This document shows positions 7,810 through 37,540 of a stretch of 64,000 bases of DNA, one piece after another (position 1 is the first letter of the stretch; every line of letters starts with the position of its first letter). A model generated the notes under the pieces. That model searched no databases, was not told the origin of the DNA, and was given only the letters and a program-made list of their open reading frames with translations. Position numbers and translations under genes: made by a program. The DNA lies in the NCBI GenBank assembly GCA_044892525.1, contig CM097887.1, forward strand, positions 24,056,001-24,120,000. Direction: 5' to 3'. The DNA comes from Schmidtea polychroa (lineage: Eukaryota).

Positions 7810-7827
7810 TGGGGGCTCAGCCGGGAT
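7810..7827 (+). promoter_or_regulatory. Primer-binding site, tRNA-Pro type
   Basis: TGGGGGCTCAGCCGGGAT matches the canonical tRNA-Pro PBS TGGGGGCTCGTCCGGGAT at 16/18 and lies 7 nt after the LTR end. Confidence 0.85.
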
Positions 7828-8754: not shown

Positions 8755-9443
8755 CACGCGACCGTCACTCGGTGAAGGGAATTGTCTGATTGAGCAATTA
8801 GACTAAAACATTTTAAGTTTTGTTGTTAATGTTTTAATAATGATATAATATATCGTATGTAGTATGAACTGAATAATAAAATAAATCATTTTTTTTGTTT
8901 TGTTGATTTCATTGTGTGAAGTTATAATTCGATCTGTTTCATCATAATTTTCACCATGAAGAAAGGGTATTTAAAAAAATTTAAATTGAGTACATAAAGT
9001 GGAACTAGTCCCAACATAGGATTAAAGGGGGAATAAACCGAGCCACCTTCGGGAGGTACGTTATACAAACGCCGTTTGGGAGGGGATAACCGATCACCCC
9101 GAGTGAGAAATGTAAGGCGAATATTGAAAAGTTTCTGCGGTATGGCTGATCACCATACCAATGTAGAAATGGATCAATGCGATCGTTTTGCGTTTTGAGC
9201 AAGGGGGGAAAGGGGAAAATATTCTCAAGCGGCGAGGAATAAGCCGACAATTAAAAGGAAAAGTGGAGAAAACGAGAATCCGGAGTAAAGGGAGAAGAAG
9301 CATGCAGAGTCAGGGAAATTAAAACTGAGCTGAGAAAAGCCAGCCAGTTCAAAGATATTAAGGCCGAGTTGGGAAAAGCCCAGCCGGTCAGGATTATGAA
9401 GATTGAGCTGTTGAAAAAGCCAGCCAGTCGTAAAGGCCTAGAA

Positions 9444-10633: not shown

Positions 10634-12469
10634 TAAAAATTTTTGGTAAAAGTCCCCAGAGCTTAGTAGAATTACTTCATATAACATTCACTAGCACTGG
10701 GGCAGAAATCAATGAGTTTTTTATTGCTTTTCAGCTTTTTAACTATTTTTCAGGAACCATTAAAATGTCGAAGGATCTCCGAATTGCATGCTGGGATTGT
10801 ATTGGCTCCAATATTCGAGATATAAACCAAAATACTTATACATATGCTGACAAGCTTATCTCTGGAAGTTTTGTCATTGAAAACTTGGTCCGAGAACAGC
10901 ATATAGACTTCCTAGATGCATTCGAAGCAGCCATAAAAATATGGCAATCTAACGTAAACTATAATCAGAATTACCTTTCTTTTATGAATAATGATTCGTT
11001 AGAAAAACATGCTTTTTTTAATAAAAATGTTAATTTTAAAGAAAAATTTAAAGAAAATGTTAATTTTAATAAAAACCCTAATAATTTTAAAAAAACCTTA
11101 AAAAAAATTAATATAAGTAATGAAAATTTTATTAAAAAACAAGTTATTAAAAATAAAAACGTGAAAACCCTTGATATTAAAAACGTGAAAAATTTACAAT
11201 TTTTTGAAAAGAAGCATGTTAATTATTTCCTTAATGATTTTAGAAAATTTTATAAAAATAAAAAAGCTAGAAATAAAAAACGAAAAAAATTAAAGAAAAA
11301 ACAAATTCAGAATAATTTGTTTAAAATTATCTCAAAAAACAGATCCGATGACAACGGCCGACTCACAGCAAACGTAAGCCCTGAAACAGAAATATTCTAC
11401 CACAGCTCGCCGGCCTTCGGCCGACTCCCAAGAAAATGATAAAGATGACGAATATGAAACTCATTTAGAATCCGATGCCAATAAAGTTAAAATGATACCC
11501 AAATCAAAAGAAACTCCAAAAAATAATATATCGCCAAATGCTCATAAAAAAACCCTAAAAAAGCTAATAACAATGATAATAGTGACAAAAACATCTACCT
11601 ATTAGACGATAGCCCTATTGAAAGGGACTCTTATCTAAAAATAGGGCAATCTAACAATGGATATGCCTTACCTATAATAAATAACTACAAAGGAAGCTTT
11701 AGTTTTACGGATATAGGTAGAATGAACCTGCGCGTTTTAAACAGAGATAGCACAAGTGAAAATGAAAATGATAGTTGTATAACCAAACCAGAAAATGATA
11801 AAGATGACGAATATGAAACTCATTTAGAATCCGATGCCAATAAAGTTAAAATGATACCCAAATTAAAAGAAACTCCAAAAAATAATATATCGACAAATGC
11901 TCATAAAAAAACCCTAAAAAAGCTAATAACAAAAAGAAGAAGGGAAAACGTCATTAAGAGTGTATATTATCAATAGGTCAATGTAGGAGTCCTTGTAGGG
12001 GCTCCGCCTAACTGACAATACCTTTTTAGTAGTTAATATTTGTAATATAAAACCTTTTCCTTTAAAACCACCTTACCTTAAAACACCATTCCTTCCAATC
12101 CATACTATAATATACTGTATAATATCTGATGGCTACAAAAATCGCAAATGGAGTCTTCTTACTCCGAATTATTAAATTCATTTAGATATGTGTGGACACA
12201 GAATGCTTGCTGATAGAATACTTTATGGAGAACCGCGTTCGATGCCAGAATTCGAGGACTGATACTGTGAAAGAAAGAACTAAGCCGACGCTTGCTGATT
12301 GGTGATAAAATACTTAGAAAAAACCACGTTTGATGCCAGAGTTCCTAACTCCAGCATCCAAAGAGAATAGACATAAAAATTTCAGTTTATTTAAGGGTGA
12401 GAACCGTTCTCCCCTTCGGCCCTGTGCCAGTTCGATTTACATAAAATAAAATTTGATTTTTTTTTTTTT
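10634..12469 (+). mobile_element. 1.8-kb non-autonomous relative of the NeSL-like element, inserted in the A1 gag 5' region
   Basis: Absent from A2. Shares the 5' hairpin, an internal motif (cagctcgccggcc..cggccgactc), 3' hairpins and the aataaaatttga(T)n end with 29827-37540. Contains a 140-bp duplication (11431-11572 / 11790-11931). Confidence 0.75.
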
Positions 12470-12470
12470 A

Positions 12471-13792
12471 CGGCAAATCGAAGAACACTCAGATCCTCAA
12501 GTAATCAATACGATTCATTATTTTCAGTAGAACAACTGCAAAGCATTAAACGAACAAGATCAATTCGCCATAAAAGAGGATCATCGCAAGGACCTAACGA
12601 AACAAGCAGAATACCAATAGACGACAAAGAAAACCCAACAACCCAATATACACCAAAGCGAGCAAGAAGTCGAGAAAGTATAATAGATATCACGAACAGT
12701 TTAACAACCTCAACAGAAGAACTATCCGTCCGGAGTTTAACTACGTCGTTGGATAACTTAAAAGAAATAGCCGAATTTCAAGAACCAATCATGACGAATG
12801 GTGTAAAGACCGACGAATATAAAGAGAAATTCAGGGTCGAACCATTCAATGGGAATGCGAACAAATTGGCGGCATTCATAACAAATTTTGAAGTCTATAC
12901 AACGGTGTGTGTATGGACGCCAGAAGCAATTAGTAAACGAATGCCTTTGTTTTTGTGCGATAGCGCACTCGAAGTGTATCTAGAAGCGAAAGAAAGAAAG
13001 ATAACATTGGATAGTTGGGAAAACATCAAAACCTTTTTGAGGAAAACTTTCGGAGCCAGCAAACCAATAAATCAAGCGCTAAGCGAACTGGCGAGTAGAA
13101 AACAAAGAGCAAACGAATCCATCACGTTATAAGCGAGCGAATTACGAAGATTAGCAAAGAAGGCCATGAATGGAAACTTGCCGAAGGAAAATTTAATTGG
13201 TTAATTCATAGAAGGACTACGCCGAGAGGAGGTAAGAGCCTCGGTGGGATGTCAAATGTGTAAAACACTAGAAGAGGCCATAGATTGGGCCACAAGATGC
13301 GAACTACACCTCCCAGCACAAATGAATGTCATGCAAGAGGAGGGGAGAATCGCAACAGCAACGGTAAAAACCGAAAATGGAGATAACAACAATCACGAAC
13401 CAAAGATGAATCAATTCATACCGGGTGCGCATCAAATTTTCAAACCACCACAAGGACGATCAAACGGGAATAACAGCGAACGCAACAACCCAAATAATGG
13501 GAACAATTTTAATAATCGACGAAATACGAACGATAGCAAACAATGCCGAACATGCGGTAAAATAGGGCATTGGGATAGAGATTGTTATAGAAACGCAAGT
13601 TGTAACAGGTGCGGACGACGTGGACATACGGAGAATATATGTCAAGCAAGAGCGTGCTATAACTGCGGTCAATCAGGTCATATCTCAAGGGAATGCCGAG
13701 AAAGGAGCCAACAACAACGACCACAACAGCGAAATAATAATTATACCCGAATCCGCAACGACAAAGTAACCCTAGTGAGGGAAAACAAATGA
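12471..13792 (+). pseudogene. gag: A1 Gag (capsid-like region + three CCHC zinc knuckles)
   Basis: FRVEPFNG...LFLCDSALEVY; CRTCGKIGHWDRDC, CNRCGRRGHTENIC, CYNCGQSGHISREC. TAA at 13130 and 13202 (TAC in A2) and a 1-bp deletion near 13748. Confidence 0.9.
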
Positions 13793-16700
13793 ATGTGATG
13801 CAAGAAATTTCACAAATGAAACAGATGATGCAACAAATGATGAGACCAAGACAAGAACCAGCACCACAACAAACTCAGAATATACGTATGATGAGGAGCA
13901 CCGAAAATCTCAGCAGTTATGAAGCACAACAACATGCACAAGAATGGCAGAGACTACAAGCTGAGGAAGAGAGAATAAAAAGAGAGCGAATTCAGCAGCG
14001 ACAAGAACAACCATTACGAATAAATATGATGAGAATGGTAAAGGAAATAAAAGAGCAATATTGTTACAATTATGGTAAAAATCCAAGTACCTATGATCGA
14101 ACCAGAGAAGCCTAAAGAAACAATTATAGAAACTAAAAGAGAAAACCCAACAACACCGCTAAAGGGAAATCAGAGAATTCAGAAAATATTTTGGAAAAAG
14201 ATAAAAGATAAAATCGAAAGAGAACATGAAAAAACAGAAGCAGAAGCGGTAAATAACGAAAACGAGAAACAAACTAGTCATTTAACCCATGAAATGATAC
14301 AAGAATTAGAATCGGAAGAATTAACGATATTTGAGAATAAAAAACTAAAGAAAGTACCGAGAATGAGAAATTTACGAATTAATGTAATGAAGACGACAAA
14401 GAAGGTATTGTCAACGGATGACAAAGAAGATTATGTGAGTAGCCTTGGTGGAGAAATATTCCAGTTAAATGAAAATATCGAACAACTGAGAGAAAAGATT
14501 GGGGCGGAAGAGCACGAAAATGAGAGCGAAAGCGATGTGACAAGCGAAAGTGAAGATGAGAATATCGAGATGAAACTAAGGAAAGAAAGAAAGGAAGCGA
14601 TAAGAAAAGTAAAAGAAATACTTCCAGTAGTAGTAAGAAACCAGGATTTCATTGACATCATACCATATAGACGCTTCACACAAAAGATAATGAAACTAGA
14701 AAGAAACGAAAAAGATCTAATACCAAGCGAAGAAAAAGCGATAATAAAGAAGTATATGGAAAAAATGAAACAAGTGGAGACAACACGCTATGTAATAAAG
14801 ATCGGAACGAGCAAAGGGCTCGAGAGAATATGGATAAAAAATGCAGTTACAGACGAGCTTTTCGATTGGATCAGAGAACATTTGGGCAGTTCGAGGAAGA
14901 AAGAATACCTGTATCAATATCAAGGAGAACAAATTAAACCTGATATGCACCTAATAGATGCGTTGATTTGGCCAGGAGAAACTCAAATATTGAAGTTACA
15001 TAAAGAGAAGCAACCAGCCAATGTTCACGAATGGGCTAAAGACGCCAAGGCTGAATACGATTTTAATATCAAGCTGAAGTTGGAACAAATAAAACAATGC
15101 ACCTTGAGACGAAACCTAGATAAATTAATCAAACAAATCCAAGAACAAGTTGAAGATAACTGGGATTTGCTCATAGCAAGACGAACCCCAGCTATGCATG
15201 AACTAATGAGCCGATTACGAGATACAGAATTGCTCAGAATGAGCGATTGGAGAATCATAAATTTGATCCACAAATATGGAAGGTTAAAAGAAACGCAACC
15301 AAAGAAATTAGAAATAACCATATGGTTACCAAACGAGGAGAAACGACGAATAAAAATGAGTAATCAGAGTACGGTGGATGACTTAGTATCAAAGATAAAC
15401 CAAGAGATAACAGAAAGGGTGCGAAGCGAGAGTAGCGATGGTATGATAGATGATGTAGTCATGATGTACGATAAAATAATATTACGGGCTGAGGACGATA
15501 CCTCGTTAAGCGAAATGGGAATGTGGGATAATCACCAAATAATTAGAATATTGCCCATGGACGAATTCCGAACAAGAGATGTAACCTACCAGAAAGAAAT
15601 ACGCGACAGGATGAAAACGCTATACCAAAAATCAGTAGAGATAATTGAAATTCATCAACAGTGGCTAAAAGAAAAAGAACTACAAGGGAAAATCAAGAAA
15701 CTGAGTATTAGATCTTGCAGACGAACCCCATGGGAAAGGATGTGGAATGCGGAAAACAAGGAATGGGAAATCAGGAAAGGAATCTTTGTAGAGACAGAAA
15801 TCGATGAGACAGAAAGCGAATCAGAAGAAGAGGAAGATGAACCTCCAAAATACGAAGAGGAAGAAATAGAACCGGCATCGGACGAGGAAAGCGAAACGGA
15901 CGTCACGTCAGAAAGTGAAACCGAAATTAGACACATTCATGCGATGAGAAAGAAGGAACGTGAATATGCCGATATGGACAGTGAGGAAGCGATAGAAGCC
16001 AGAGAACGAGAAGAGAAGGAAAGATATAAACAATTAGGTGATATCATAGCAATGGGAGCAAAATATCAACAACGACAAGTAGTAGCATTGGCTAACATCA
16101 TCCTAAAGACATCAGAGAATATCCACAATCTAAGAGAGATGGCGAAGGCGATAGAGGAATACCGACAGTATAACGAATGGTATCCAGAACAGCTAGTACA
16201 AATTATCAGAAAATGGAGAAATCAGGAGTGGGCACAAGATACCCAAGAAAGATATCGTATCCGAGTCAAATATCCCGACAAAAGCATCGAGGATATAGAA
16301 GTACATCCAACAACGAAGATCAGGGAATTAAAAAAGAAATTAGCATACGAAACTCCATTTCACCTGCAATTATTCGGGAAATCGCTAGATGATAATGCAG
16401 ACGTCGGAATAACACCCATGAGATTGGGGGAGATCAATGTATTGACAATGGCAGAAACATTAGGGAAACCAATCAAAAGAAAAAGCAAATCCAGCAAACC
16501 CACGAAAGGTAGCTTAAGTACACCAAGTCCTGACAAAGGGCCGAGTAAATCGAACGAAACCGAGGAAATCGAGGAGATCATATTAGAAGACGGCGATGAA
16601 GGAGCCGGAGAACGATCACCAATTCTAGTGAGATGGCCGACAGGGGCAGAAATATGGACAACAAGCCAACCATCAACTAGCTATCAACTACCAAGTAAGC

Positions 16701-17074
16701 TGAACATAGAAGAAATTATCGATAATACGACAGAAACCGAAACCGACGAACAATTCCAACGACAAAAAGGACCAACAAAAGTAACACCGGAAGGTCAAAC
16801 AGACAAAATAATAGACGAATGGAATGAATGGCTGAGAAACAACGATAGCTCATTACCGAGAACAGATAATGAGAGAAACCCGAGTTACGAAATGACCAGA
16901 GAAGCTGGAACAACGATGGAGAAACGGGCAAAAGGAAGACCCAAGAAGCAAGGAGAAAAGCCAGAATTAAAAACTAGAGAACAATTAAAACAAGAACAAG
17001 GACAAGTCAGATTAGAAAAATTGGACAAAATAGTGTGGGATCTAAGAGGCCCAAACAACAATAGAAAGAGGTGA
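13789..17074 (+). CDS. A1 accessory polyprotein region with three ubiquitin-like domains and acidic linkers
   Basis: ORFs 13789-14115 and 14072-17074, joined in A2. Beta-grasp-like segments at ~14780-15005, ~15303-15557 and ~16250-16445. Confidence 0.75.
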
Positions 17075-17470
17075 AAAATGGATACGAGAGCTAGTCAAAG
17101 ATATGCTAATAATAACCAAACCGCAATTGAGACGGTTATGGCAACGGAAGGTAGCAAATGTGGAAGCCAGACAACTATGGAATATAATATCCGGAATAAT
17201 CCCGAAATTGATCAAAGAGAAAACAAAGACCACTAAAACAGATTGGGAAGAGACCAGGAGAGTAATTGAACAATTAACTTTAAACGCGAACGACGACGAA
17301 CATCATCTAGTGGTATTAACGTATCTAATGTATAATTTGATGGGATTAGCAGCTAGGAAAATACCTAACAAACAATTCGCAAATCATGTAGAAATGACAG
17401 TGACAATCATTGAAAATACAATCGAACCACCTATTATCCGCGCAGGCGGGTGGAAAAGACTTATACAAGC
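17075..17470 (+). CDS. Bcl-2-like domain of the A1 polyprotein
   Basis: BH4-like WIRELVKDML, BH3-like ARQLWNIISGII, BH1-position VIEQLTLNANDDEHHLVVLTYL, BH2 PPIIRAGGWKRL. Confidence 0.75.
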
Positions 17471-17589
17471 GCCACGAAAAAACGAGCAAGAAAGATCAAT
17501 GCAAATCCGGTTGAAGAAATTGCTAAACGAACTGGAATGGGAATTGCCGATGAAAGACCCAGCCAGCAGAAAAGCGTCGATTAATTCAC

Positions 17590-19663
17590 TAATGATGACC
17601 ATGATGATATGGATGCTATGCACAAGCGGAGCATCAGGATTTACAATTTACGACTGCGACAATTCAGTAATGGGAGAAAAGTACTCGCTGAGAGATATAG
17701 AGGAATGTAGACAGGCATCTCCGAATAAATTAGATATAGTAAAAAAGAAAGTCTCCTATCACGTGTATCAAGAATCAGACTTTATCCGAACACAAGCGAG
17801 AATGCGTAGTATCAAAGAAGGTATTGGCATATTACTGTGGGCAATATTCGTATTCAACTCTCATACTACCCGGATTAGATAAAGAAATAGTACCTATACA
17901 GCGAGAGGACTGTAAAGAGCTTTTTAGAACTGGAGCGATGAGAATCAGAGATGGAGTAACAATACACGGACAAAGCGGAATGATCAAGACTGAAAGCATC
18001 TATGTAGCCGGACGGCTAAAATCTACGGATGGATCATGTAGCGGAGGCGCGTATACGATCAGAGGGGAGGCGATATCGGGGGTACTAGTAATTGAGTCCT
18101 ACACAGTGGAGTTGAAGGAATACGAAGCGCAATTTGACGCAAATAATTATCAAATGAAAACCAACCCAGCATGCAGAGCTACGGAAAACGTATGTAAAAC
18201 TGGAGTATCAACCATAATATATGAAGCTAACACTCAAAAATGCCGACTCCAATTGTTAAAAAGTGCTTTGTTTAATGAAGTAAAAGGAGAAATTTATGAA
18301 AACGAAGATGACGATGAAGAAAATGGAGGAGTTAGAATGCGAAATGGGAAACCAATTCCACCATCCCCCAAAGAAAAAAGACTCACAACACAAAATACAC
18401 CAACCGCACTAATTACAGACGATCCAGATATAGGTATGAGATTCATCAGGGAAAAAGAGACCACCAAATGTGACGAACTACGCAGGCATCTACATGTCAA
18501 GACAGGTAATAGACCGAGCAGTGGGAAAGATATCAACGGAGGACGTAAAGCTGTACCTGTACGCCAATAACAAAATGGACTTTTTATTTCATCGTGGACA
18601 AACGACAATGCAAAAAGTATATTACGACCTCATACAAAATGACTGTTCATTGAACAAAGAAATACTAAAAACCAAATTAGCCATCGCAATAACACACCCA
18701 GATAACACGATGCCATCACTCCCGTTACCGGATGGACATTTTGGTAGAATGGTGGGAGAGGTGATGTATACATATGCATGTACTAAGACGTTCGCGCGAA
18801 TGCCAAGAAACCCCACAATTCCACCAGGGAAATGTGCAAACGAATTAGAAATTAGTTACAAAGGACGGAACAGATTTGTTCAACCCGTCACTAGAATTAT
18901 GAACCCAATTGGATTTTATCCGAACACTTTTAACTGTTCAAATGCATACGGACCATTATATGAAAAACCCGATGGGAAATGGATAATGTTACCAGTAAAA
19001 ACCGAAGTACAAGAACCTAAAAAGTTTGGATTAATAGAACTCGCAACAGAAAAAGATTTCAAACCAATCGATGTGTCAAAGGCAGGTATGTACTCACCAG
19101 AGGATTTAGAAACAGCACGACTAAACGTACTATTCCCAGCAAGGCAAGAATCCATTTTATCGAACATGGTTACCATAACTGGTGGAACAAATTTTCAATC
19201 AGGTCCAAACTATGAACTATTATTATCACCAGATCATTTTCAACAAGCCACGTCCAACATGATGAAAGCAATGTGGGGAAGATTTCTAGTGTTCGGACAG
19301 ATGATGGCAGGAATATTGGGAATCATCTTAATTATCCAGATTGTCAGAGTGATATTGACTCAAATGTTAGCATGTTTTGATATCTATAAGAGGGAAAAGA
19401 AAGTAAATTGGAAATTGATAGTAGGTTTTCTACCATTTTTGACGAAAACAATGGTGTTGCACGGTCATTCTAAAGATATACATAGAATAAAACGATTAAT
19501 CAAAATACTGACAAAGATAAAAGGAACTGACGAGGAAGTCGGCAGACGATTCCGGAAAGCAATGTATGATGAAGCAACAAGAGCCCAGCTGACAAAGAAC
19601 AAACCTAAATTTATGGACAGGTTTAGAAATCGAAAAAAGCGTAAAACAGATGATGTGGATTAG
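17590..19663 (+). pseudogene. env: Envelope glycoprotein, chuvirus/Jingchuvirales-like (class III fusogen), two frameshifts
   Basis: Signal-like LMMTMMIWMLCTSGASG then FTIYDC..YSLRDIEEC..ECVV..YYCG. Cys-rich ectodomain, C-terminal TM (FLVFGQMMAGILGIILIIQIV) and basic tail. Confidence 0.75.
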
Positions 19664-19862
19664 CGGAATAATAATAGCAGGGGCATTTCTGATCATAACG
19701 GGGGGAACAATAAAAATAATCAAAGATAGACGACATCGCGGGGAATTAGAAATGACCAGAATCAGAAATTTTCAACATCAGGTAAAAAGACCAAGTAATA
19801 TCAAGCAGGAACAGTGGGTGGAGGCCTGGAATGCTCAGCGCCCTCCAAACTCACATATATAG
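19650..19862 (+). CDS. Small ORF with N-terminal hydrophobic helix, overlapping the env stop
   Basis: MMWISGIIIAGAFLIITGG followed by basic residues; 70 aa. Confidence 0.45.
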   Translation: MMWISGIIIAGAFLIITGGTIKIIKDRRHRGELEMTRIRNFQHQVKRPSNIKQEQWVEAWNAQRPPNSHI

Positions 19863-20006
19863 AAAGGATTATGACTGTATATAGATTGTAAAAAGGAAGT
19901 ATATAATATTTATTTATATAACAGTATTCTATATCTCTATATAAGCGCGGTATCAATATTATATGATGATGGGGATAAATAACATAAAAATAAAATTAGA
20001 CAAGGG

Positions 20007-20390
20007 TTGAAAAGTATGTATAAATTAAGAATGGAGCAAATAAACAACGAGGAAAACCACAGCACGACAACCGAGGAGATGTGGAAACAACAATGTGCTA
20101 TGTTAGCTCAAGTAATTTCGAATTTACAAGAACAAGGACTCGCTGTACAAAGAAACTTAGTCGAAAGTTTAAACAAAGGATTCAGTTACGTAAGAATAAT
20201 TGAAGATCAGCGAATAAAAATAGAACAAATGCAGAGAGAAATAGATCGAATATCGCGATACAGTCAGGTACAGGAGGAAGAGTTAATAAGAATTGCCGAG
20301 GAAATGGAAAGAGAGGAGATAGAAGACTGGTCAGAATGGTTAACCAGTAGGGAAGAGGGCGGACAAGAGGCCGACTCTTCCAACCAATAA
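20007..20390 (+). CDS. Orphan coiled-coil protein (A1 3' cassette)
   Basis: Open 127-aa frame (likely ATG at 20016) with heptad pattern, flanked by AT-rich spacers. Confidence 0.55.
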   Translation: MKSMYKLRMEQINNEENHSTTTEEMWKQQCAMLAQVISNLQEQGLAVQRNLVESLNKGFSYVRIIEDQRIKIEQMQREIDRISRYSQVQEEELIRIAEEMEREEIEDWSEWLTSREEGGQEADSSNQ

Positions 20391-20455: not shown

Positions 20456-21868
20456 ATGTATATATATATAATTATAGAAATGGATAAGCGACAAAGAGAA
20501 GAGTTCAAAGAGATTGTCGAACAAGTCAGAAAATCCACCACAATTCGAATACATGACCATGTGAAGTGTGGAATATGCAAGGGATTATTAAAAGAACCTC
20601 ACCAAACCAGATGTGGATGTAGAATGTGCAAGGAATGTGTAGAGGAGATAATAAAGAAGGGACCACAATGGTGCCCAGTATGTAAAGAAACGATGATAAC
20701 AAGTTTGGGAGATACAAACGAAGACAAAGCGGCAGTGAAAGATATGTTGAATGCAAATTTAGGATGTAAAAACACCCCATGCAATTGGCGAGGAGTGATA
20801 TGGGAAGTGAGACAACACATAGAGAAGTGTGAGTATAAAATCAGTCAATGCAAACGTTGCGAGGAAGCGATTAAAGCAAATGAAGAGGAAGAGCATCAAA
20901 GTCGATGCGAGGAAAGGCTAGAAAAATGTGAATATTGTGGAGAAACCGACACTTGGAGAAAACTAACCAGTCAACATCATAACTTACAAGAGGAAAAAGT
21001 GTGCGCAGAATTTAGAGGAGAATGTCCCAATAAATGCTATAAATCCGGAGTAATAAAACTCGCTCAACATCTGAAAGAATGTGAAAGGAAAAAGATAACG
21101 TGTGTGCTAGGAAAATGGGGATGTCTGAAACAATTACACCGAGGAGAATTACCCCAACATCTAGCAGAGAACGTATCAACACACGCGGAAATATGGTCAA
21201 CGGTATTACAAGAAAACGAAAATAAAACCGAAAAACTGGAAAAGGAAATAATCTCGCTAAAAGCGTTGGTAAAGGAGTTATTGCAAGGAAAAGAAGCATT
21301 TGAAGAAGCGAGAACAAGTACAAAGATACAGACAGACCTAGTAGAAACTAGCAACAATATGGTGAAAGAACTACATCAAAAAGTAAGCGAAATAAATCTC
21401 AACGAATTAATACCAACGGCTCCATACATATGGAAAATAACGGGAGTAAAGGAAAAAATGCAGAGAGCAAGAAACGGGAAGGATACAACATTATTAAGTC
21501 CAGCATTTTACTCATGGAAAAACGGATATAAGATGAAAATGAAAGCATATCCCAACGGGGATGGAAGTGCATACGGAACACATTTTTCAGTATTCTTCTT
21601 GATGTGCAAAGGGTTGTACGACGAGTTAATAGAATGGCCGTTCAAAGCAAAAATAGACCTCGCAATGATGAATCATCAAAGAATACATGAACAGAGTTTT
21701 CATACAGCAGGAAACCTCGTATGTTATCAAAGGCCATTGGAAGAAGAAGGACCTGCATCCGGAGCACCGAATTTCATTCTACAGCGAAAAGTGGAAGAGA
21801 TGACAAGGAACGATACCATCTACATAAAAATAGCGGTGAGGCGAGATGGCAAGAGCAGAACAGAATAA
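20456..21868 (+). CDS. TRAF-family protein (RING - TRAF zinc fingers - coiled coil - MATH), intronless and intact
   Basis: CGICKGLLKEPHQTRCGCRMCKEC...CPVC; TRAF Zn fingers; MATH motifs YIWKI, SPAFY..GYKM..YPNGDG..GTHFS, WPF. Probable start is MDKRQ. Confidence 0.95.
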   Translation: MYIYIIIEMDKRQREEFKEIVEQVRKSTTIRIHDHVKCGICKGLLKEPHQTRCGCRMCKECVEEIIKKGPQWCPVCKETMITSLGDTNEDKAAVKDMLNANLGCKNTPCNWRGVIWEVRQHIEKCEYKISQCKRCEEAIKANEEEEHQSRCEERLEKCEYCGETDTWRKLTSQHHNLQEEKVCAEFRGECPNKCYKSGVIKLAQHLKECERKKITCVLGKWGCLKQLHRGELPQHLAENVSTHAEIWSTVLQENENKTEKLEKEIISLKALVKELLQGKEAFEEARTSTKIQTDLVETSNNMVKELHQKVSEINLNELIPTAPYIWKITGVKEKMQRARNGKDTTLLSPAFYSWKNGYKMKMKAYPNGDGSAYGTHFSVFFLMCKGLYDELIEWPFKAKIDLAMMNHQRIHEQSFHTAGNLVCYQRPLEEEGPASGAPNFILQRKVEEMTRNDTIYIKIAVRRDGKSRTE

Positions 21869-22089
21869 CGAAACGAATAATTTTGTATATACTAATTTGT
21901 AAATATCGGCGTATATATCCAGTAAAATATTATATAGTAGCGTAGAAAACCCCAAATCTACTAATGGTAAACTTAAGCGGAAAAATTCTAAAACGACCCA
22001 CCAATAACGAATTGTAAAAAATAAATAAATAGCGAAAAACAAAAATAATTATGCTACGTCAAGTTAATACTATCGTTATTTAGATAAAA

Positions 22090-23128
22090 ATGACACAAGA
22101 AAGAACTGAGGTTTCAAACCACGAGCTAAGAATCAATAAAGTACACAGAGAAAGATGGGCCAAAGTGATGGCACAACTAGCAAATCAGACACGAAACTAT
22201 CTCGAAGAAGCAAGAGAATGGGAGAACCACCAATTCCAGTGGTTGGTGCAAAATTTGCGAGCAGAGGCAGAGGCATGTAAAAGAGCCGCCAAGTGGTCAG
22301 CATTAGAGAGTACTAGACAGGAAGCGCACGGTCACTACCTAAAACAATTGGTACAGGAGTCGAGAAAAAGACTGACCGACGAGAAGAAAAAACGGGAGGT
22401 AGAAAAACAAAAAGAGGAAAGGAAATCTCGTCAACTATTGGCAGAAGCCAGAAAGTGGAAAAGACAACATCGGGAAATTAAAAAAGAGATGAGAGAATTA
22501 CCTCAGAGGCTAGAATACGAAAGTGAGCAGGGAAAATGGGAAGAAAACCGTGACCAAAGAAAAGAGCTAAGAAGGCTCAGGAAAAACGCCGCCCGAAGTC
22601 AAACCTGGCAGACCAAGGCCATGGAATTTGAAAGGCATCTGGCCATGAAATTATCTATAAAAGAACAGGAAAATACTGCCATGGAAGAGATGATCCTGCA
22701 ACAGTCAGGGAGAATCGTTGAACTCGTGAATAAGGTGACAGACCTCGAAAGAGACAATAACGGCTATAAAGGGGCACTAGAACAACGGAACATAGTGCTA
22801 GCCGGAAAGAATAAAAAAATGGGAAAACGAAAGGAAGATGTATGATGAAAACATCAAGAACCTGGAAAAGGAGATCAAAAAATGGGAAAACGGCGAAAAG
22901 GCGGACGAGTTAGAAAAACAGATAGAAGTAAGAGATGATGAAACCAGGTATCTGACATACCTGTTAGACGAGGAACTTAACGTCTCAAGAGCACTGAGAG
23001 GCGAAGTTCAGGAGCTCAGAGCTCAGCTTCCTAGATATTATATCCCATTCGACCCAATCGCACTCCATCTACAAGCGTCAGTAGAAAGCGATGAAGGATA
23101 TGTGGGTCAAGAAGAAACGTTTGTATAA
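22090..23128 (+). CDS. Two overlapping orphan coiled-coil ORFs (22090-22845, 22838-23128)
   Basis: Long E/K/R-rich helical frames; may be one frameshifted gene. Followed by A18 at 23175-23192. Confidence 0.6.
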
Positions 23129-23298
23129 CAACCAACAGAAAAGATAAAAAATATAAAATCTGGACCTGTATCCCAAAAAAAAAAAAAAAAAATTAATAGC
23201 ATGGTAAAAGTATGACCCTGATTATATAAATTACATATAAATGTATAAGTATAAGCCGCACTGTAGCGCAATTATTAATTATGTATATATTATAGAAA

Positions 23299-24018
23299 AT
23301 GAACACTGAAAACGAACAACCCATCATAACATCTATAATCGAGCTAGAAGAGGGAGAAACTGAAGTAGAAGAAGTGGAGAGGAAGAAAACTATCAAGGAA
23401 GAATTACAAAAGGAGAGACAAGAAAACGAAAGATTAGTAGAAAGATGGAGGGATAATCGAAAAATGATTAAAGTATTGAAAAAAGAATATACCTTGTTAG
23501 GAGAAGTAAAAAAAGAAGTAGAGGAAGAAAACGAATGGTTTCACGAACAAAGAAAGCGAGGGAGAAATTGGGAAAAGTTCGCGGAAGAATTATGGCAGGA
23601 AAGAGCCAGTCTCAAGGCAAATGGAGTGATCGAAGATTACTGGAAAATAGAAGCGAGGAAACGACAGGAAACTATCAAAGAACTAGAAAACCAGCTGGAA
23701 GTAAAAGTACAGGAAAGTGCAAAAATGGAAAAATGGAGCAATAAATACCGAGAGATAGAGACAAAACAGCGGAAACAAAATCGAAAGACAAACGATCCAG
23801 AGGAAAATGATTTCCTATAATTGGAGCTGGAACGGAACCTGGAAGAGAAGAAGAAGATAAAAACCTTGAAAAGAGAGATAAGACGCTTGACAAACAAGGT
23901 CCAGGAGAAAGATAGACAACTAGAAATGTTGCCGGAACTCCGACATAGGGTCATTAAAGCAGAGTCTAAATTAATGCGAATCCGAGAGAAAGACCCTAAA
24001 AAGAAACGACAAAATTAA
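23299..24018 (+). pseudogene. Orphan coiled-coil gene with one in-frame stop (23818-23820)
   Basis: ORFs 23299-23820 and 23821-24018 are contiguous and in the same frame. Confidence 0.55.
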
Positions 24019-24062
24019 AACCAACAAAAAGCGATGTATATAAATGTGTATAAAATAACTAA

Positions 24063-24725
24063 ATGTATACCAGTATCATGAGAAGCCAACCGATCATAGT
24101 AACGCTGATGATGATGATAATTCTTGATCTGACAAGGCGACAACCAGTGAAACCCCAAATCGAACAGGTTCGAGACAGCAGAAAATCCAATCAGAAAACC
24201 GAACCGACAACCCCATCGTGCACCTACTCAAATGCAATAAAAACCAATCTTATCAATAACCTTCGAGCAACCCGAAACTACATCAACAACATCAGAATCA
24301 TGTGTAACCACAACCCTATGTGTAAAATTATCGATAAAAGAATCCTGGACCAAATTCACCAACTCGATCAACTGGAACAGCAAGTCCAACATCAAGAAAT
24401 GCAAAACCCAGTCGAACAAGTAAAAAGCCCCAACGGAACAAATGACAACCATGAACTCCTCTACGTGGTAATCGCCGATACCACCGTAATCATGGTAATC
24501 ACTCTCCTAAAAATCCATAATATCTACAAAGTTTGGAAGAAAAGTCACCCCGTACCGGAAAGATCATCTAGAAGATCTCATGAAGCTATTATGGCTGACG
24601 TAATCCAAGAAAATTTCCGACAACGAACCTCCATCGCAGAAACAGTCAGACCGTCCACAAGTCGCCGAATATACTACAACATCGAACCCCAACAATCCAA
24701 TCACCCATCATCAACAGAAAACTGA
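24063..24725 (+). CDS. Orphan predicted single-pass membrane protein
   Basis: N-terminal hydrophobic stretch (IIVTLMMMIIL) and second hydrophobic stretch (LLYVVIADTTVIMVITLL). C-rich composition unlike neighbouring ORFs. Confidence 0.55.
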   Translation: MYTSIMRSQPIIVTLMMMIILDLTRRQPVKPQIEQVRDSRKSNQKTEPTTPSCTYSNAIKTNLINNLRATRNYINNIRIMCNHNPMCKIIDKRILDQIHQLDQLEQQVQHQEMQNPVEQVKSPNGTNDNHELLYVVIADTTVIMVITLLKIHNIYKVWKKSHPVPERSSRRSHEAIMADVIQENFRQRTSIAETVRPSTSRRIYYNIEPQQSNHPSSTEN

Positions 24726-24994: not shown

Positions 24995-25187
24995 TGTTGG
25001 GCTAAAGGTGGAGGTGGCGAAAACTGGATCAAATAGGGAAACGAACCCCGGGAAAAATTAAATGAAATAGGATAATAAATAAATCAGCACCAAATCCCGG
25101 TAGTAAATAGGGAGAAACAATAAAATATCAATAAAAGAATAAGAATAAGCAACCAAATAAATAAAACCCCTAAAAGTTGAAAATAAG
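24995..25187 (+). repeat. A1 3' LTR, 5' portion
   Basis: Matches 4814-5006 with one substitution seen. Confidence 0.9.
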
Positions 25188-25444
25188 TGTTAGAAAAAGA
25201 CATAGTTTCACAGAAATATTTATTCACTACAAAAATCTAAACGGAACACACAATCGTTATACTATTTATAGTACATTGAATTGCGTAATCTACAAAAGGG
25301 AGAATTATTAGTTTAAGTGATACTGTTGACACAGAAGACAAACATACTTAATTTAGTTATACAAGCATTCCCGCATCATTCAATAGATATCAAGGTCTAG
25401 TGACCTGGTTATGTAAGTAATTCTTTGGAAATTATTATATCATC

Positions 25445-28400
25445 TTACATCCCCCTCCATTTAAAACTTTTGATCCATTCTACATTTCGAATTATTTCTT
25501 TGCCTTGCTTATTCTTTAGAACATAGCTTCTGTCATGTCGTTTTCCAGTTATTTCATAAGGCCCTTCATAACGTTCATCCATCTTTCTAGTATTTTCTTT
25601 TTTAACCAATACTTGGTCTCCAACTTCAAAATTCCTATAATTTTGTGTAATTAAATTCTTTTCTATGTTTTGTTTATGTTTAATTCCCTCCACGATCTCC
25701 CTTCTCCGATTATTAGCATCATTATTTTGTATATCCAAATTCTCTTTTTCCATCCATTGTCTACAAATATTCCGCCCAAATATTATTTCAGAGGGCGAAA
25801 ATCCGGTTGTCTGCTGTATCGTCGCATTTAACATAAATTCCACATCGGGCAATATTTCTGCCCAATCTTAATGCCGTTTGTCTTTTAACGTAATTGCAAT
25901 TGCATCCCTTATAGTTCTAAATTGCCTCTCAACTAAACCGTTTGTACTATGATGATATGGGCTTGAATATATTATTGTAATATGATGCGTTTTCAACACT
26001 TCTAAAAGTAGTTGAGATTCAAATGTCTTTCCTCTATCGGATTGAATGATTTTAGGAGCACCAAATTTCAAAATCCAATTTTCTCTTAAAATCTTTGCCG
26101 TCGTCTTTTCATCCTGATGAGCAACTGCCGTCAATGATATATACCTACTGAATTGATCAATTATAGCTAAAATATATTGTTTTCCATGAATTGTTTTCTT
26201 AAATGGTCCGCAGAAATCAATAAATATCTCTTTGAAAACTTCATCTGTACTCTGTTTAATCAGCGGTTCTTTTGTTCGTCTTGTCCACGTCTTCCGTTTC
26301 TGACACTGTTCACAATTTTCAATCACTCTTCTAACTTCATTTTCACTAATTTTCATTTTCATTTTTTTCCGTGCATATTCGTAAATTTTTTTTACCCCTG
26401 CGTGACATAAGTCTTTATGTATATTTAAAATTACACCTTCATTATTTACTTTTATTTCTTGGTCCATATTTTCTATGGCCAATATTTTAGTTTTATTTTT
26501 ATCTACCTTGGCGTTTTCATGAACTGTTTGGCACTGACTACATGAAGTACAGTCTTTCCTTGATAGGGCATCTGCGTTAGCATGCAATTCTCCTTTTCTG
26601 TATTCTAATTTGATATCTAGCCCACTTAAATAGTTAATCCATGTCTGGAATTGTGCTGTAATTGGCTTTTTTGTATTTATCATAAAGGTTATAGCTTTAT
26701 GATCGGTTCTTAAAGTAAATCTTTTTCCATATAGATAGTGTTTGAAATGCTGAGTAAAATGATAGATTGCAAGCAATTCCTTTCGCGTAATGCAGTAACC
26801 GATTTCGTGCTTATTCATTGTCTTTGATCCATATGCAATAACTTGTTCTTGTCCATTACTACTCAACTGCGAAAGCACTCCCCCAATCGTATCGAAACTA
26901 GCATCTGTATCTAAAATAAAGGTTTTTCGTAAATCCGGAAATCCTAGTACTGGGGTAGACGTTAACGCTTTCTTTAGCGTGTTGAAATTTGTTTCACATT
27001 CTTTAGTCCATATAAGTTTATCTTTGTTAGACCCACATAACCTTTCTAATGGTCTTGCATACTTGGCGTAATCTTTAACAAATTTTCGATAATAATTTGT
27101 TAAGACTAGAAAGCTTCTTAAACAGTTTAATACATTTTGGTTTTTCATATTCTTGCATTGCTTTTATCTTTTCATAATCTGTCTTAATACCATTTTTATT
27201 TATAATGTGTCCCAAAAATTTTATTTCTAGTTTGTTAAAACAACATTTTTCTAAGCTTATTTTCAAACCAGCTTCTTGAATCTTTCGAAAAACTCTTTCT
27301 AGTCTTTTTTTATGTTCGATTTCATTGTCTGCAAATATAAGGATATCGTCTAAATAAACAATTGCTTCTCTTCAATTAAGGTCACCCAAAACTTGAGTCA
27401 TTAATTTTTGAAAAGTTGCTGGGGCAGCTGCAATTCTAAAAGGCATTTGGTTAAAACAATATTGACCATCTTTTGTTGAAAATGCAGTCTTTATTTTTGA
27501 TTCCTCTTCTAATTCCACTTGATAATAAGCATTACCAAGATCGATAGTGCTAAATATCTGTGCTCCATTTAGGATATCCATCATCTCTTCAATATTTGGT
27601 ATTGGAAATCGAGGTCTCTCCTTAATTGCATTTAGTGCCCGAAAATCCAAACATATTCTAATATCTGATTTATTCTTTTTTAACACACATACCAATGGGC
27701 TATTCCACACCGAGTCACTTTTTTTTATAATTCCTGCTTCTTCCATGTCTTTTAGCAAGTCTTGTATTTTGTGAGCAATATGAATCGGCTGACGTCTAGG
27801 ATTAATTGTCACTGGGCTACCTCTAGTAACTATCTTATGTTTAATTAACTGTGTTTTTCCTACATCCCATTTATTTTTCATGAATATATCCGAAAATTCT
27901 TTAAGTAATTTATTAATCGTTGGGTCGATAATTCCTTTCAAATTGTTTTCCTCTAAATTCATTAATTGATTTTTTAATTTTACTTTAGTTACTGCCTGTA
28001 ATTTAATATCAAAACAATTCATCATTTCTACGCCTGCAATTACGCTCGGGTTAATCTTATTTGCCACAAAGAATCTTATTACCAATTCTAATCCCGAAAT
28101 TCTCACTTTTAGTAATATTGTTCCTATGATTTTAAGTGTGCTCTCGTTTGCACATGTAACCATAATATTGGATTCCCTTATTTTATCACGCATCTTTAAT
28201 TTACTAACAACATCTTCGCTAATCACGTTTATTCTAGCCCCGGTATCCAAAAGACAATCAACTTTTATTTTATTTTCCAGCCAAATACCTACACTAGGTC
28301 TGCCATTCATTCTTTCGTAAACGAATTTAGGTGCAAAAGGTCTTTCTTTATTTTCATTAACTTTATTATTAATTATATCGATACTCATAATCTTATCAAT

Positions 28401-28640
28401 TTTGTTATTAATTTCATAAAAACTATATTCAAAATAATTTTCAAAGTCAAAACATTCACAATCATTCATAATTACATCATTAATTTTTAAATCATCTTTA
28501 AATTCATTCATTACGGAAATCTTGAAATCACAAGCATTCAAATTCAAACATTCTGTGTCAACAATATACTTACTTAAACCAAATTTATGGCTCCTAGCAA
28601 CTCCCTTGAAACTGGAGCCTCCCCTTTTAGCTGTTCGCAA
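25445..28640 (-). pseudogene. pol: Element B pol (PR-RT-RH-IN), frameshifted
   Basis: LLDTGA, YLDD, DTDAS, HKDLCHAG..CEQC, FIDFCGP, SDRG, GLVERQFRT. Confidence 0.93.
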
Positions 28641-29645
28641 TCTTTTTGCATGTCATCCTGTTGAATCAGCTCTCCTTCCTCGTATTCGTAGTCGTATATC
28701 GCATTGCATTGTCTTCGATGTGGTCCTCTGTCTGAAGATTGGTTTCTGCTTTGATATTGTCCTCTGGATCCAAATTGTTTTTGATTTCTATCATAATTTC
28801 TTCCGTTGTAATATGCTTCTGTTTTAACTGAATTTCTTCTGATGTCCCAACATTGATACTTGAAATGACCATTTTTGGAACATTGAGAGCATTTTACGTT
28901 TGGGCATTCTGCTCGAATATGTCCTTGCTCTCCACACGCCCAACATCTCTGCAGTTTAAATCGCCTGGTCCCGTTCTTCCAGTCACTTTTATTTGGCATA
29001 TTGAAGTTCGCGGCCTCATTGGTTCTAGAGTTAGAAAATATTGGCGTCTTATTCTGTTGGTACAACTGAGTTTTTCTCGGACTTTTGACTGTCTCCGCAT
29101 ATGATTTATTTTCATGTAGAGATGCTAAGGATTGTTCACTTGAAAGCTCTTTTTGAATTTCTTATATTCTTGATATCACTTCCTGCCTTATCTACTGATT
29201 TAACTTCTCTTAATTTCAATTCTTTTTTTGTTTCCATATCTTCCATTGCATTCTGCATTAAAAATAACATTAATGCCGGTTTTGTTAACTTGTGTCGAAG
29301 AACATTGTCGACGAGCTTTTCCACTTTATTGAAAAATTCCGTGCACGAGTCATTTCCTTTTCGATATCTTAAAGCTGCGTCTAGATCCATGGCTAGATTT
29401 TTCCTTGGCTCGAACGCTTTTCTTAATCTTTCTTCATAGCCTGAATAATCGCTCTGTACTTCTTCATATTTCTGGATCAACTCCACCGACAGAAAGGCCT
29501 TAGTAACAATTTCTTGAATTTCTTGCGGTTGTTGAGTGAATTCGAAAAATCTCTTCAATTCCAAAATAAAATTTTCTAAATCACCATTTGGCAGCAATTG
29601 ATTAGGTGGCTTGATATAGTTCTGGAGTCCTGGCGTGGTCGCCAT
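28574..29645 (-). pseudogene. gag: Element B gag (split)
   Basis: ORFs 29136-29669 and 28574-29065; CWACGEQGHIRAEC and CSQCSKNGHFKYQC knuckles. Confidence 0.9.
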
Positions 29646-31229
29646 GTTAGAAAAAGACATTAGTTTCACAGAAATATTTATTCACTACAAAAATCTAACC
29701 GGAACACACAATCTTTATACTATTTATAGTACATTGAATTGCGTAATCTACAAAAGGGAGAATTATTAGTTTAAGTGATACTGTTGAACAGAAGACAAAC
29801 ATACTTACTTAATTTAGTTATACAAGAAAAAAAAATCAAATTTTATTATAATACATCCACAGGCCAGTTGGCCAAGAAGGGGAGAGATTCTCACCTTTAT
29901 GAAGTCTGGAGCTCTTAATTCAATGATCCATGGATACCAGTGTTACTAAACTCCGGTATCAGAACGGTGTTTTTCCCGAAAATTTCATTTGGGTTTGTGG
30001 TTAGAGCTTCGGAGAGGTCTGAATAGATTGGGTATCGTTGATCCAAGCTTCAGAGAGGTCTGGGTGGGTTGAGATAGTAGAGTTGTTGAGGTCAGCCATT
30101 TGCGATGATGACAGGATAATATCCTAAATAAATAAATGTCGGGGCAGGAAGGCTCCCTTGCGATGTTTATAGCGGTAATAGGTGTTTATTATTATAATAT
30201 ATATTAGAAGGAGTTGGTGAAGGTTGTGATAGTATAGTAGTAATAGTATAGTAATATTGATATAATATTGATAGGAACAACTAAAAAGACCACCAAATAG
30301 GCAGAATCCCTACAAGGATTCCTACATTAACCCATTTGGTGATTGACATTTACTATATACATTATAAATAATAATAGATATAATAGTAATAGTAGGTAAA
30401 AATAATAATACTAGATATAATAGTCATAATAATAATAATAATAGTAATAATAACAATAATAAAGAAAAAATAAAATGACAAAATTAATAATAATAATAGT
30501 TACATTAAAGGGTAGCACTATTATAACGATAGTAATAAGAGGTCATTAGGGTATTTACGTATTTTTATGGGTAGGTTAGATTAGAGAGTTTAGAATTTTA
30601 AATTTAGGAGTTGAGTATTTTATTTGTTTTAGTTTTAAAGTATGTTCCAAAATATAATTAGTATATAATTGTGTAATAGTAGTATTAGATTAGTAGTAAT
30701 AGTAATAATAATAGTAGATAGTAGTATAATAGTAATAGTAGATAAAGTAATAATACTAGATATAATAGTCATAATAATAATAATAGTAATAACAATAACA
30801 ATAACAAAGACAAAGATAAAATGACAAAATTAATAATAATAAAATAATAGTTACATTAAAAGGTAGCACTATTATAACGGTAGTAATAAGAGGTCATTAG
30901 GGTATTTACGTATTTTTATGGGTAGGTTAGATAAGGGAGTTTAGAATATTAAATTTAGGAGTTGAGTATTTTATTTGTTTTAGTTTATAAGTATGTTCCA
31001 AAATATAATTAGTATATAATTGTGTAATAATAATAGTAGTTTATTAGATTAGTTTTGTAGATAATAACCATAATACACAAATAATACTGAGATAATGCTC
31101 TGAATACATATTATATAATAATATCTAGGTTTAAAGTTTGGTTTAGCAAGAGACATATGAGAAGTTTAAGGGGCGAAATATAATAACCATAGAATGCGAA
31201 TAAATAAAAGATGCTTTGTCTACAAAATA

Positions 31230-31231
<2 letters not shown>

Positions 31232-31266
<35 letters not shown>
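31232..31266. repeat. (TA)n microsatellite
   Basis: Direct read; abuts the ORF2 stop. Confidence 0.95.
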
Positions 31267-31267
<1 letters not shown>

Positions 31268-31270
<3 letters not shown>

Positions 31271-34200
31271 ATTTATGTAAATGTGTTGGCGATATATTTG
31301 GTAGCTGCTATTGATTGCAGCTACACAAGCTTTTTTGGAAAGCTCCTTTATTTCATTGTTGCATAGGCCAATAATTCTAAGTATTGAGTCATTATTTTTA
31401 TCCCATGAACCAAGGGTGCCAATTACAAGAGCATGTAAGGTGTGTGGGCATTTATGGAGTCTACCAATTTCCTCGCCCAGTTCTTTATATTTATTGTAGT
31501 TGTTTTTCCTAGAGTTGTCGTAGTTTTCTCTGGAGTCAAAAGGAACCTTAATGTCTAGGATGTGTATAGCTTTGTTTCGTTTGGATTTTAAGAGAAGGTC
31601 AGGTTTAAGAGTGGAGTTGGTACCTTCCGGTATTTTCTCTATGTCAACTTCATAGTTGACAGAGATAAGAAAGTTTGCCACAGTTTCTAAGACGTTTTCG
31701 TGCTTATTTCGTCTTGCATTAATACGTGCTTGGCAGTGGTTGAAGATGTGTGCAGGTGTTTCAGGATGAGCATGGCAGTGCCGGCAGAGTATTGATTTAT
31801 TAGTTTTAAGGCGGTGTGGTGAATAGTTTAGTTTTAAAATGTTGTTGCGTGCGCGAATAAGAAAAAGGAATTGGGCATCAGGAAGGATGTCACTTTTAAA
31901 GAAATAGTCAGCAATGCTGCTTTCACTAATTGCTCTTGCCATATAGCCCTGGCATTTCATCGCACACCAACGTTCAGCATAGATAAGTCCAATGATAGTG
32001 TGTAGTTCAGCTGATGTTCTATCTACATTACCAAGGGAGAAATAATTGATGCGACTCTTGTATTTTATTTCAAGCTGTAAGAGGTCCTCAAGCATCACAA
32101 TTTTGGTTGATATACCATATTGGTGAAGCAGACGTCGGGCGGATTTTTTAAATTTCGAGAAGATGGAGAAAGTTGGATAGCTTTTAGATATCTGGCCATT
32201 CAGCCAAGACAGTGCGACATTTAGATCTCCCTGTCCTCTAGCTTCAATAAGTTCGGAGGTAATGAGATTCTTGAAGTTAAGATCACTAGAGTTTAAAGCC
32301 CTAATAAGTTGGACAATACTTTGAATAAGGTATTCGTCAATGGAAGATACAAGTCCAAGGCCGCCCAGCTTGCAAGCTGCATATAGGAAATTGTCATTCA
32401 GTTGCATTATCTTATCTCCGATGGATCTTTTAATACCCTGTTTTATTTGCAGGTCAAATCCATATTGTTGTTTTTCAGAGCTACGGAGGATGTTGCGTGG
32501 AGAGTCAAGAATGTTATGGTTAATAACACAATTCCTAAAAGTAAAGTTCAAGCGGGAGTGGATGAAGACTTTAAAGGCGTTAATTTTTTGGGAAGGATGT
32601 AAATGAGAGTTGAGGATTTTGTTTGTGTCTTGAATTGCGGAGTCAAGTCTTTCATTGATGCAGTGTTTGGTTTTATGGGAGAAGTCTACCCCTAGATATC
32701 TGTACATGTTAGATTCATCGATCTTTGGTAGGGTTTCACCATAGAGTAGAATGGGTTGGTAGTTGCAGTCATGGTCAACGTGGAAGTATCCAGATTTCGA
32801 AGGTTTAAAACGCAGATTGACTTTTGTTGCAAGGGAGACAGTAAGAGATAGGGCCGACTTGATGTTGGGATAAGAATCAGATATGAGTACTATATCGTCA
32901 GCATATGCAAGGATGCTAATGTTGTGATTATGAAAAAGAAATGGATGAGTTTGTAATACATTGCGGAGTATGAAATCAATGGATAAACAGAACAGAGTCA
33001 TGGACAAGGGGCAGTCTTGTTTCACGCCTTTATATATTGGTGTATAATCAGATTTTTCTCCCTCACAATCGAAGTAAGTTTGTACATTGTTGTACATGTC
33101 TTGAAGAAGAGCAATAGTAGTGGAGTGGACACCCATCCCTGAAAGAGTGTGCCAGATGAGTTCGTGTGGGATTGATCCAAAGGCATCAACTATATCCAGC
33201 CAAACGATATGTAGGTCAGTTTTCTTACGATAAGAAGAGTCTTTTATAAGGTGTAGGATGAGATTGTGTTCAGCACATCCATCCGGTGCGCAGATAGCTT
33301 TTTGATTAGATGTTAGGAGATTTCCTGTACTGATCCATTCAAGAAGACGGTTATTCATCAGTGAGGCGAATATCCTATAGGCAGTGTTCATTATTGAGAT
33401 CGGTCTCCAAGAGTTAGCCTCATGGCTTATTTCAGCTTTACCAGCTTTAAGAATGAGTCGGGTACGAAAGGATTTCCAGCATATTGGTGATCTGGAATTA
33501 CGAAGGATGTTGTTACATAAGGCAAGGATGAGCTCAAAGTTAGGAGATATCTTTCTCCAATCGCTTAGGGAGATTTTATCGGTACCAGGGGCAGTATTGT
33601 CGAGTTGGCAGAAGATACTTTTAATGTCATCAATGTCAAAGGGAATGATGGTTAATGATTCAGAGAGTGCTGGGTACTGATAGTTAAGGTTAAATGTGCA
33701 ATCGGAGGTTTTGCTAGCAAAAAGTTTTAAAATATGATCCATATTTGGTGTATGTGTTTTCATTTGATTATTTAAGATTTTTGAAATTTCCTCTTTAGGA
33801 GCAAATTTATATTTTTGTCTCTTGGTAAATACCAGCTCTTTACTAACCTTATAATTTTTGTGAATAATGTCCGATGCTTTCTTTGTGATGTATTTATGAG
33901 GATTAATGCTTCCATTAATTCTCTCAATCTCACTTAAGGCAGCATCGCATTCAATTAGATTGTTATTTAGATTAATAATTAGACAATTGATAAATGGTCG
34001 GAATTTCCGCACATCATCATTTGGCAATTTGCAATAATTATAATTATTTATAGTAGTTTTAATATCATTAATCATATTAGTTACATTAGGGCAAGTTAAT
34101 TTTTTACGTTTAATAAGGCATTCGATAAAGTGGCATATATAGAAAGCAGAGTCTGTAGGTACGAAGCAACGAGGGTATGCAGGATTTTGAAGTACAATTT

Positions 34201-37525: not shown

Positions 37526-37540
37526 AGAAAAAATTTTTTT

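Follow-up and report, generated by a model that had tools for sequence, protein, structure and literature searches.

A complete, intronless TRAF gene inside a Gypsy element of Burro-like layout in Schmidtea polychroa

The window analysed here, the whole stretch of 64,000 nucleotides of Schmidtea polychroa DNA, contains a complete TRAF gene inside an LTR element (element A, also called copy A; Table 1). The gene is very probably fixed cargo of the element family, which by its layout is assigned to the Burro/GYPSM1-like giant Gypsy elements. In the explanation that we favor, TRAF would have been captured long ago from the flatworm TRAF radiation, presumably as a processed copy, and would have taken on the A-rich make-up of the element. 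It would then have spread along with the element, located between pol and the 3′ LTR and under selection on the protein, with a place behind pol expected in complete copies. The copy in the window is a young, decaying insertion with no pol, and its TRAF would be intact simply for want of damage so far. As for function, we give an even chance to the reading, made by analogy, that the product is a mimic of pro-survival TRAFs.

Table 1 Features of the window with their positions, strands, and the evidence used.
Feature	Position	Strand	Evidence
Left target-site duplication, CATA	4810..4813	.	Same 4 bases at 37990-37993
Element A, LTR element enclosing TRAF	4814-37989	+	Self-comparison, 4-bp target duplication
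5′ LTR of element A, ~3.0 kb, TGTTGG...CCAACA ends	4814..7802	+	Self-comparison
Primer-binding-site-like 18-mer, 7 bases past 5′ LTR	7810..7827	+	Sequence
Decayed accessory RING gene upstream of gag, copy A	8463..8755	+	Likeness to sister copy
gag: Retrotrans_gag and CCHC knuckles, two in-frame stops	12401..13792	+	Pfam
Middle of polyprotein, ubiquitin-like stretch near 16235-16462	13741..17074	+	Pfam
Helical region (BCL2-like position) and env-like fusion glycoprotein, three frames	17046..19663	+	Pfam
Remnant frame, one strongly hydrophobic helix and basic tail	19602..19862	+	Hydropathy 2.07
Deletion junction, env abuts accessory block, pol absent	19633..19638	+	Sister-copy likeness, contigs
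Accessory ORF, 135 codons, no Pfam family above cut-off	19983..20390	+	ORF list, Pfam
TRAF gene, 462 aa, intronless	20480..21868	+	Pfam, alignment, AlphaFold model, structure search
RING, eight Cys ligands, residues 30-68	20567..20683	+	Pfam and ligand check
Five TRAF-type zinc fingers, residues 96-235	20765..21184	+	Alignment, ligand sets
Coiled-coil helix, residues 232-306	21173..21397	+	AlphaFold model, heptad bias
MATH/TRAF-C domain, residues 316-455	21425..21844	+	Pfam, model, structure search
Accessory ORFs 22084-22845, 22802-23128, 23296-23820, 24063-24725	22084..24725	+	ORF list
3′ LTR of element A, two pieces 24995-25280 and 37540-37989	24995..37989	+	Self-comparison
Small gypsy element nested in 3′ LTR of A but not related to A; has gag, PR, RT, RH, IN of its own	25188..29826	-	Pfam
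Nested non-LTR retrotransposon in 3′ LTR of A, 1088-codon RT frame	31268..37546	-	Pfam
Right target-site duplication, CATA	37990..37993	.	Self-comparison
Sister element B, cut by window end; 3′ accessory block beyond window	42431..64000	+	Pfam, self-comparison

The TRAF gene and the enclosing element

The TRAF reading frame is open over 20423-21868 on the plus strand, which is that of the element. The preliminary description placed the gene at 20456..21868; the open, intact frame is upheld, whereas the start probably lies elsewhere. The ATG at 20456 is in frame but lies within a TA microsatellite; the likely start is the ATG at 20480, where the nearest relatives also begin in the alignment. 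Because host TRAFs can be aligned along its full length, the gene is taken as intronless and complete.

The RING-zinc finger-coiled coil-MATH architecture that the same description read from the letters is borne out by Pfam for the RING and MATH domains, by five ligand sets, and by a modelled helix. The RING scores above the cut-off with PF00097 (zf-C3HC4; E 6.6e-05) and the MATH domain with PF22486 (E 5.7e-25) and PF21355 (E 1.9e-25). Pfam zf-TRAF gives no score on the protein itself; the fingers, four with CCHC and one with CCHH ligands, align with those of host TRAFs that do score. In the AlphaFold model (mean pLDDT 79.8), a helix of 75 residues with heptad bias and pLDDT of 84-95 precedes the MATH sandwich of the β domain. 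The best solved relatives in the structure search are TRAF3 (E 6e-28) and TRAF2 (E 1e-26).

The location of TRAF inside an LTR element, also part of that description, is confirmed by paired LTRs with inverted 6-base ends, by CATA on both flanks, and by LTR identity of 99.5%. The LTR pieces differ by only 4 substitutions and 1 indel in 736 aligned bases, which marks the insertion as young. The mid part of the 3′ LTR is replaced by nested elements. We take the 18-mer behind the 5′ LTR to resemble the tRNA-Pro primer site of retroviruses; no tRNA genes were found within the 64-kb window. An LTR end at 9016 (second CCCAACA) was rejected, since placing the end at 7802 accounts for both the CATA duplication and the primer-site-like 18-mer. 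The 5′ LTR contains two short ORFs (6498-6941 and 6784-7245).

The polyprotein starts with Retrotrans_gag and CCHC knuckles in both element A and the sister copy B. Its middle part in A (14051-17071) contains no Pfam family above cut-off and no MATH domain. The ubiquitin-like stretch, at the place expected for Burro, matches PF00240 below the cut-off (E 0.0028; 17.8 bits against 25.4). The helical region before env gives a six-helix model with a pLDDT of only 50.7, and neither Pfam, Atlas, nor sequence comparison gave a match to a BCL2-like domain there; fold comparison gave none that was clear. The three env-like frames match PF24664 with E 4e-04, 2e-17, and 1e-43.

TRAF belongs to a block of same-strand ORFs 3′ of env, and none of the four accessory ORFs downstream of it reaches the Pfam cut-off. 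The frame at 19602-19862 is probably what is left of the 3′ end of an accessory gene for a membrane protein, and the ORF at 24063-24725 has two hydrophobic stretches; these transmembrane-like frames lie either side of the TRAF block. Separate polyadenylated units for the accessory ORFs are unsupported, as 12 of 17 AATAAA sites lie inside ORFs and the sites are not confined to ORF ends. The presence of two frames with hydrophobic helices flanking TRAF in the same block, together with an env gene in the element, would fit a TRAF that serves as adaptor to membrane proteins encoded by the element itself (the env tail or accessory membrane proteins) and acts in particle trafficking or release. We consider this function improbable, since no clear TRAF-binding motif is seen by eye in the protein tails of the window.

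Copy A lacks pol. Its likeness to copy B stops at about 19633, one read-set contig tracks env to 19633 and then diverges, and contigs of run X7 start at 19637-19638 after ~130-150 other letters. Copy A thus seems to have lost pol and the front of the accessory membrane-protein gene by an internal deletion. Its gag-env region has two stops and five frame changes. The two copies are ~85% identical in gag-env, with dN/dS of 0.12 at dS of 0.57, indicating purifying selection on the family. As the family is selected but copy A is broken, copy A decayed after insertion.

In copy B, the env frame continues through PR and a putative dUTPase-like stretch to RT (shared env-PR-RT frame, 60784-62979), with RH and IN after it. 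The dUTPase-like stretch between PR and RT, at the expected place, has PF00692 as its sole match (E 0.11). A gene with an IAP/MDM2-type RING lies upstream of gag (45694-46263; PF13920, E 2.9e-07) and is, judging from its sequence, a putative second E3-type cargo besides TRAF.

The element family is assigned to Burro/GYPSM1-like giant Gypsy elements by its layout, which matches that published for planarian Burro/GYPSM1 (PMC6431247). Shared features are the CCHC gag, an in-frame env of mononegavirus type located after gag and before pol, multi-kb LTRs, accessory ORFs, and TRAF/MATH cargo, here represented by the ORF at 20480-21868; weakly matching candidates for the ubiquitin-like and dUTPase-like stretches lie at the expected places. 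Burro elements, giant Gypsy LTR elements of planarians, are already in print with MATH_TRAF_C cargo, which in S. mediterranea is part of the polyprotein and in Dugesia tigrina of an accessory ORF lying upstream, and also with BIR and BCL2-like motifs (PMC6431247, which cites Jurka 2007 and Grohme 2018). Unlike the Burro described there, TRAF here is a stand-alone RING-5ZnF-coil-MATH gene positioned 3′ of env, towards the 3′ LTR. That text names the MATH domain only and does not display the D. tigrina ORF, which may also be full length. Neither BIR nor ankyrin was found in the 64-kb window, and word-indexed protein searches (1, 1, and 5 hits) gave no Burro polyprotein with MATH.

TRAF as probable multicopy cargo

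Part of the TRAF gene is present in 10 of 17 listed public runs, from 5 studies. Contigs of four such runs were aligned to 18300-25300 at 80% likeness. The runs gave 6148, 3075, 535, and 111 aligned contigs, and 30 of 30 bins were covered in all four. The summed contig depth of TRAF relative to env is 1.01, 0.60, 0.72, and 0.38. In the two deepest runs, the TRAF depth is ~400 and ~140 times that of single long pieces, which should be read as "many" and not as a copy number. The listed contig pieces on TRAF are 79-95% identical to it, and four extend from TRAF into the sequence on its left or right. Among the listed contigs, none spans from pol to TRAF, and a complete element was not seen. Four of the 15 listed contig joints, plus two more, skip or replace part of TRAF, suggesting that many TRAF copies are damaged. 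Locus scans gave 0 of 2 candidates in viral data and, when made with the TRAF alignment, 0 of 487 in metagenome data.

The differences between copies point to selection on the protein. Among the 40 best-supported differences listed (1702 more exist), 7 of the 10 in TRAF are silent against an expected fraction of 0.27 (P 0.005); the silent share is 4/5 in env and 4/7, 2/5, and 2/5 in three other accessory ORFs. None of the 12 indels listed (64 more exist) falls within the TRAF ORF.

The silent sites of TRAF resemble those of the element. Its fourfold sites have A at 0.61 and T at 0.05 (n=142), and those of four gag/env/pol frames of the family have A at 0.53-0.59 and T at 0.07-0.12; T reaches 0.24-0.42 in six frames of the unrelated nested elements. 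These values agree with the earlier remark that TRAF has the same strand bias as the element's own genes. The long residence proposed from that bias also finds support, both in the silent-site make-up and in the nearest proteins being only 37-41% identical.

At the damage density of copy A, a 1386-base ORF stays open with a probability (P) of 0.24-0.30. The intact ORF is therefore expected by chance and gives no sign of domestication, which we rejected for this copy. Chance survival is also what a neutral passenger, or a one-off retrocopy of a host mRNA, would show. We find such an origin hardly credible for TRAF in view of the many diverged copies with the same neighbours, the excess of silent changes, the element-type silent sites, and the low identity to the nearest protein. 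In particular, a one-off processed retrocopy near-identical to a host mRNA, the outcome that the preliminary description had named as contradicting it, is at odds with the diverged copies, the silent sites, and the lack of a near-identical protein among 1.84 billion representatives.

Descent and possible role of the TRAF protein

A phmmer search with the window TRAF against these 1.84 billion protein representatives gave 6243 hits, the best full-length match being 37% identical and three fragments 40-41%. Trees were calculated with 119 rows (250-660 aa) and then with chosen subsets of 29 and 24 rows; the 24-row set excludes the three fragments. The window TRAF groups with these nearest proteins, which are of A-rich type (support of 97, 96, and 99/98 in the three trees). 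It is sister to P0003 at 99/98, and the pair is kept in a mixture-model tree without fragments. The pair sits in a clade of 16 rows (99/98) with Dendrocoelum TRAF-2, -4, and -5 and Dugesia japonica TRAF2-like A, and TRAFs of molluscs, cnidarians, echinoderms, brachiopods, and fish fall outside the flatworm TRAF clade. The window TRAF's group includes the five rows richest in E/K/R/T among the 119. This richness is what would be expected of A-rich element genes, and shared composition may account for part of the grouping of these rows. Two or more further clades of flatworm TRAFs lie outside the A-rich group.

The RING motif TRCGCRMC indeed has Cys where His is usual, as first described. By pattern, 14 of 152 proteins have this Cys (61 have His, 21 another residue, and 56 no match), and the carriers include host flatworm TRAFs and a starfish TRAF. 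The residue is thus no special trait of the element, a candidate we rejected; being common to host flatworm TRAFs, it suggests inheritance from the donor.

The window TRAF resembles host planarian TRAFs (those of Dendrocoelum and D. japonica above; Smed-TRAF-2A/B are also known, PMC7586133) in domain order, length, Cys-for-His RING, finger spacing, and membership of one clade. It differs from them in identity (27-31%), in its element-type composition, and in its place in a multicopy mobile element. Unlike vertebrate TRAF2/3/5, it has an all-Cys RING and a shorter coil, and it lacks a 7-residue insert present behind the RING of the fish TRAF row P0019. Viral TRAFs (megalocytivirus ORF111L and giant-virus TRAF-like proteins) are similar in being host TRAFs carried by a genetic parasite, and the top two rows of the viral fold search match with E of 1e-16 and below. 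They differ in belonging to DNA viruses, in length (206-368 aa in the top iridovirus-like rows), and in identity (17-23%). Viral and element TRAFs were likely captured independently.

The element TRAF would trimerise via the coil and the MATH domain, and the trimer could dock on receptor tails or adaptors, with the RING and zinc fingers recruiting ubiquitin machinery. Alternatively, the same cargo might act as a decoy that binds receptor tails or mixes into host TRAF trimers, thereby blocking innate signalling against element RNA or DNA. Sequence divergence would be compatible with this. The branch of the window TRAF is long (1.26 versus 0.24-0.91 in the conserved clade of host TRAFs to which P0017 and P0012 belong), its MATH bit score is 90 versus 102-142 in host TRAFs, and both the Ser run and the basic residue of what we take to be the TRAF2/3 receptor site are altered. 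However, host flatworm TRAFs also show an altered Ser run, branches of equal length occur in other clades of flatworm TRAFs, and the RING, five fingers, and coil are all retained, which is more than a decoy needs. We therefore regard a decoy as rather unlikely.

The mimic of pro-survival TRAFs would imitate host proteins so that element-expressing cells are not killed. It is favored because host planarian TRAFs support and are required for cell survival (PMC7586133), Burro has BIR and BCL2-like motifs (PMC6431247), the family has an IAP-type RING in its leader, and Burro RNA is seen in gut and other cells once piwi is lost (PMC8532177). Contrarily, the viral TRAF ORF111L of an iridovirus promotes apoptosis (PMC3352826), which counts against a pro-survival role. 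This precedent, and the iridovirus TRAFs that rank second and ninth in the viral fold search, would by analogy favor a pro-death factor aiding late particle release. We judge such a factor very improbable, since an element inherited via stem cells would gain from host-cell survival, and the published Burro co-cargo is BIR and BCL2-like (PMC6431247).

Planarian TRAF/MATH genes are known to be expanded, with 121 domains (PMC6109357) or 282 contigs (PMC7586133) reported. It is possible, though we hold it doubtful, that a large share of this expansion is Burro cargo: a complete TRAF captured, spread in hundreds of copies, and steering survival signalling in stem and gut cells, with some long-branch host clades being escaped domesticated copies. 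The host-type clades outside the A-rich group suggest that elements explain at most part of the expansion. In the literature searched (subscription journals aside), TRAF/MATH in Burro is named solely by PMC6431247, and a full RING-finger-coil-MATH gene in Burro, its 3′ position, its descent from a flatworm TRAF clade, and a link to the expansion were not found. The available text of PMC7586133 contains no occurrence of transpos- or retro-, and that of PMC11410931 does not mention TRAF or MATH.

TRAF cargo of Burro, earlier known as a domain label, is seen here as an entire signalling gene under selection, which stems from the TRAF radiation of the host and occupies a third position in the element. 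It offers a clean target for the idea, proposed in PMC6431247, of a Burro that interferes with apoptosis and ubiquitination. Host genes and element copies may be mixed up in the TRAF counts, expression profiles, and RNAi results obtained for planarians.

Nested elements and neighbours

A weak, sub-cut-off match to a Helitron helicase-like domain is located at 1761-2396 (E 0.006). Two short coiled-coil ORFs that are related to each other and match no Pfam family lie at 6498-6941, in the LTR of A, and at 38102-38593 on the minus strand, just right of A. The metagenome protein P0154 has env-PR-RT in one frame, with 56% identity to the window env, and by its sequence would be a Burro-like element of another lineage; a locus scan with it found 80 loci, all of a generic RT kind and all lacking matches to TRAF, env, or the accessory genes.

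The two LTRs of A carry the same 93-bp piece of a small-gypsy LTR at matching positions (5007-5099 and 25188-25280), as if an insertion in the parent LTR had been copied to both ends. A second small gypsy element, related to the one in the 3′ LTR of A, lies within env of copy B (53548-58610, minus strand). The 3′ end of the copy B LTR is inverted relative to copy A (45240-45976), and env of copy B also holds a fold-back duplication (59969-60493) with 254-nt arms that are 99% complementary and 17 nt apart.
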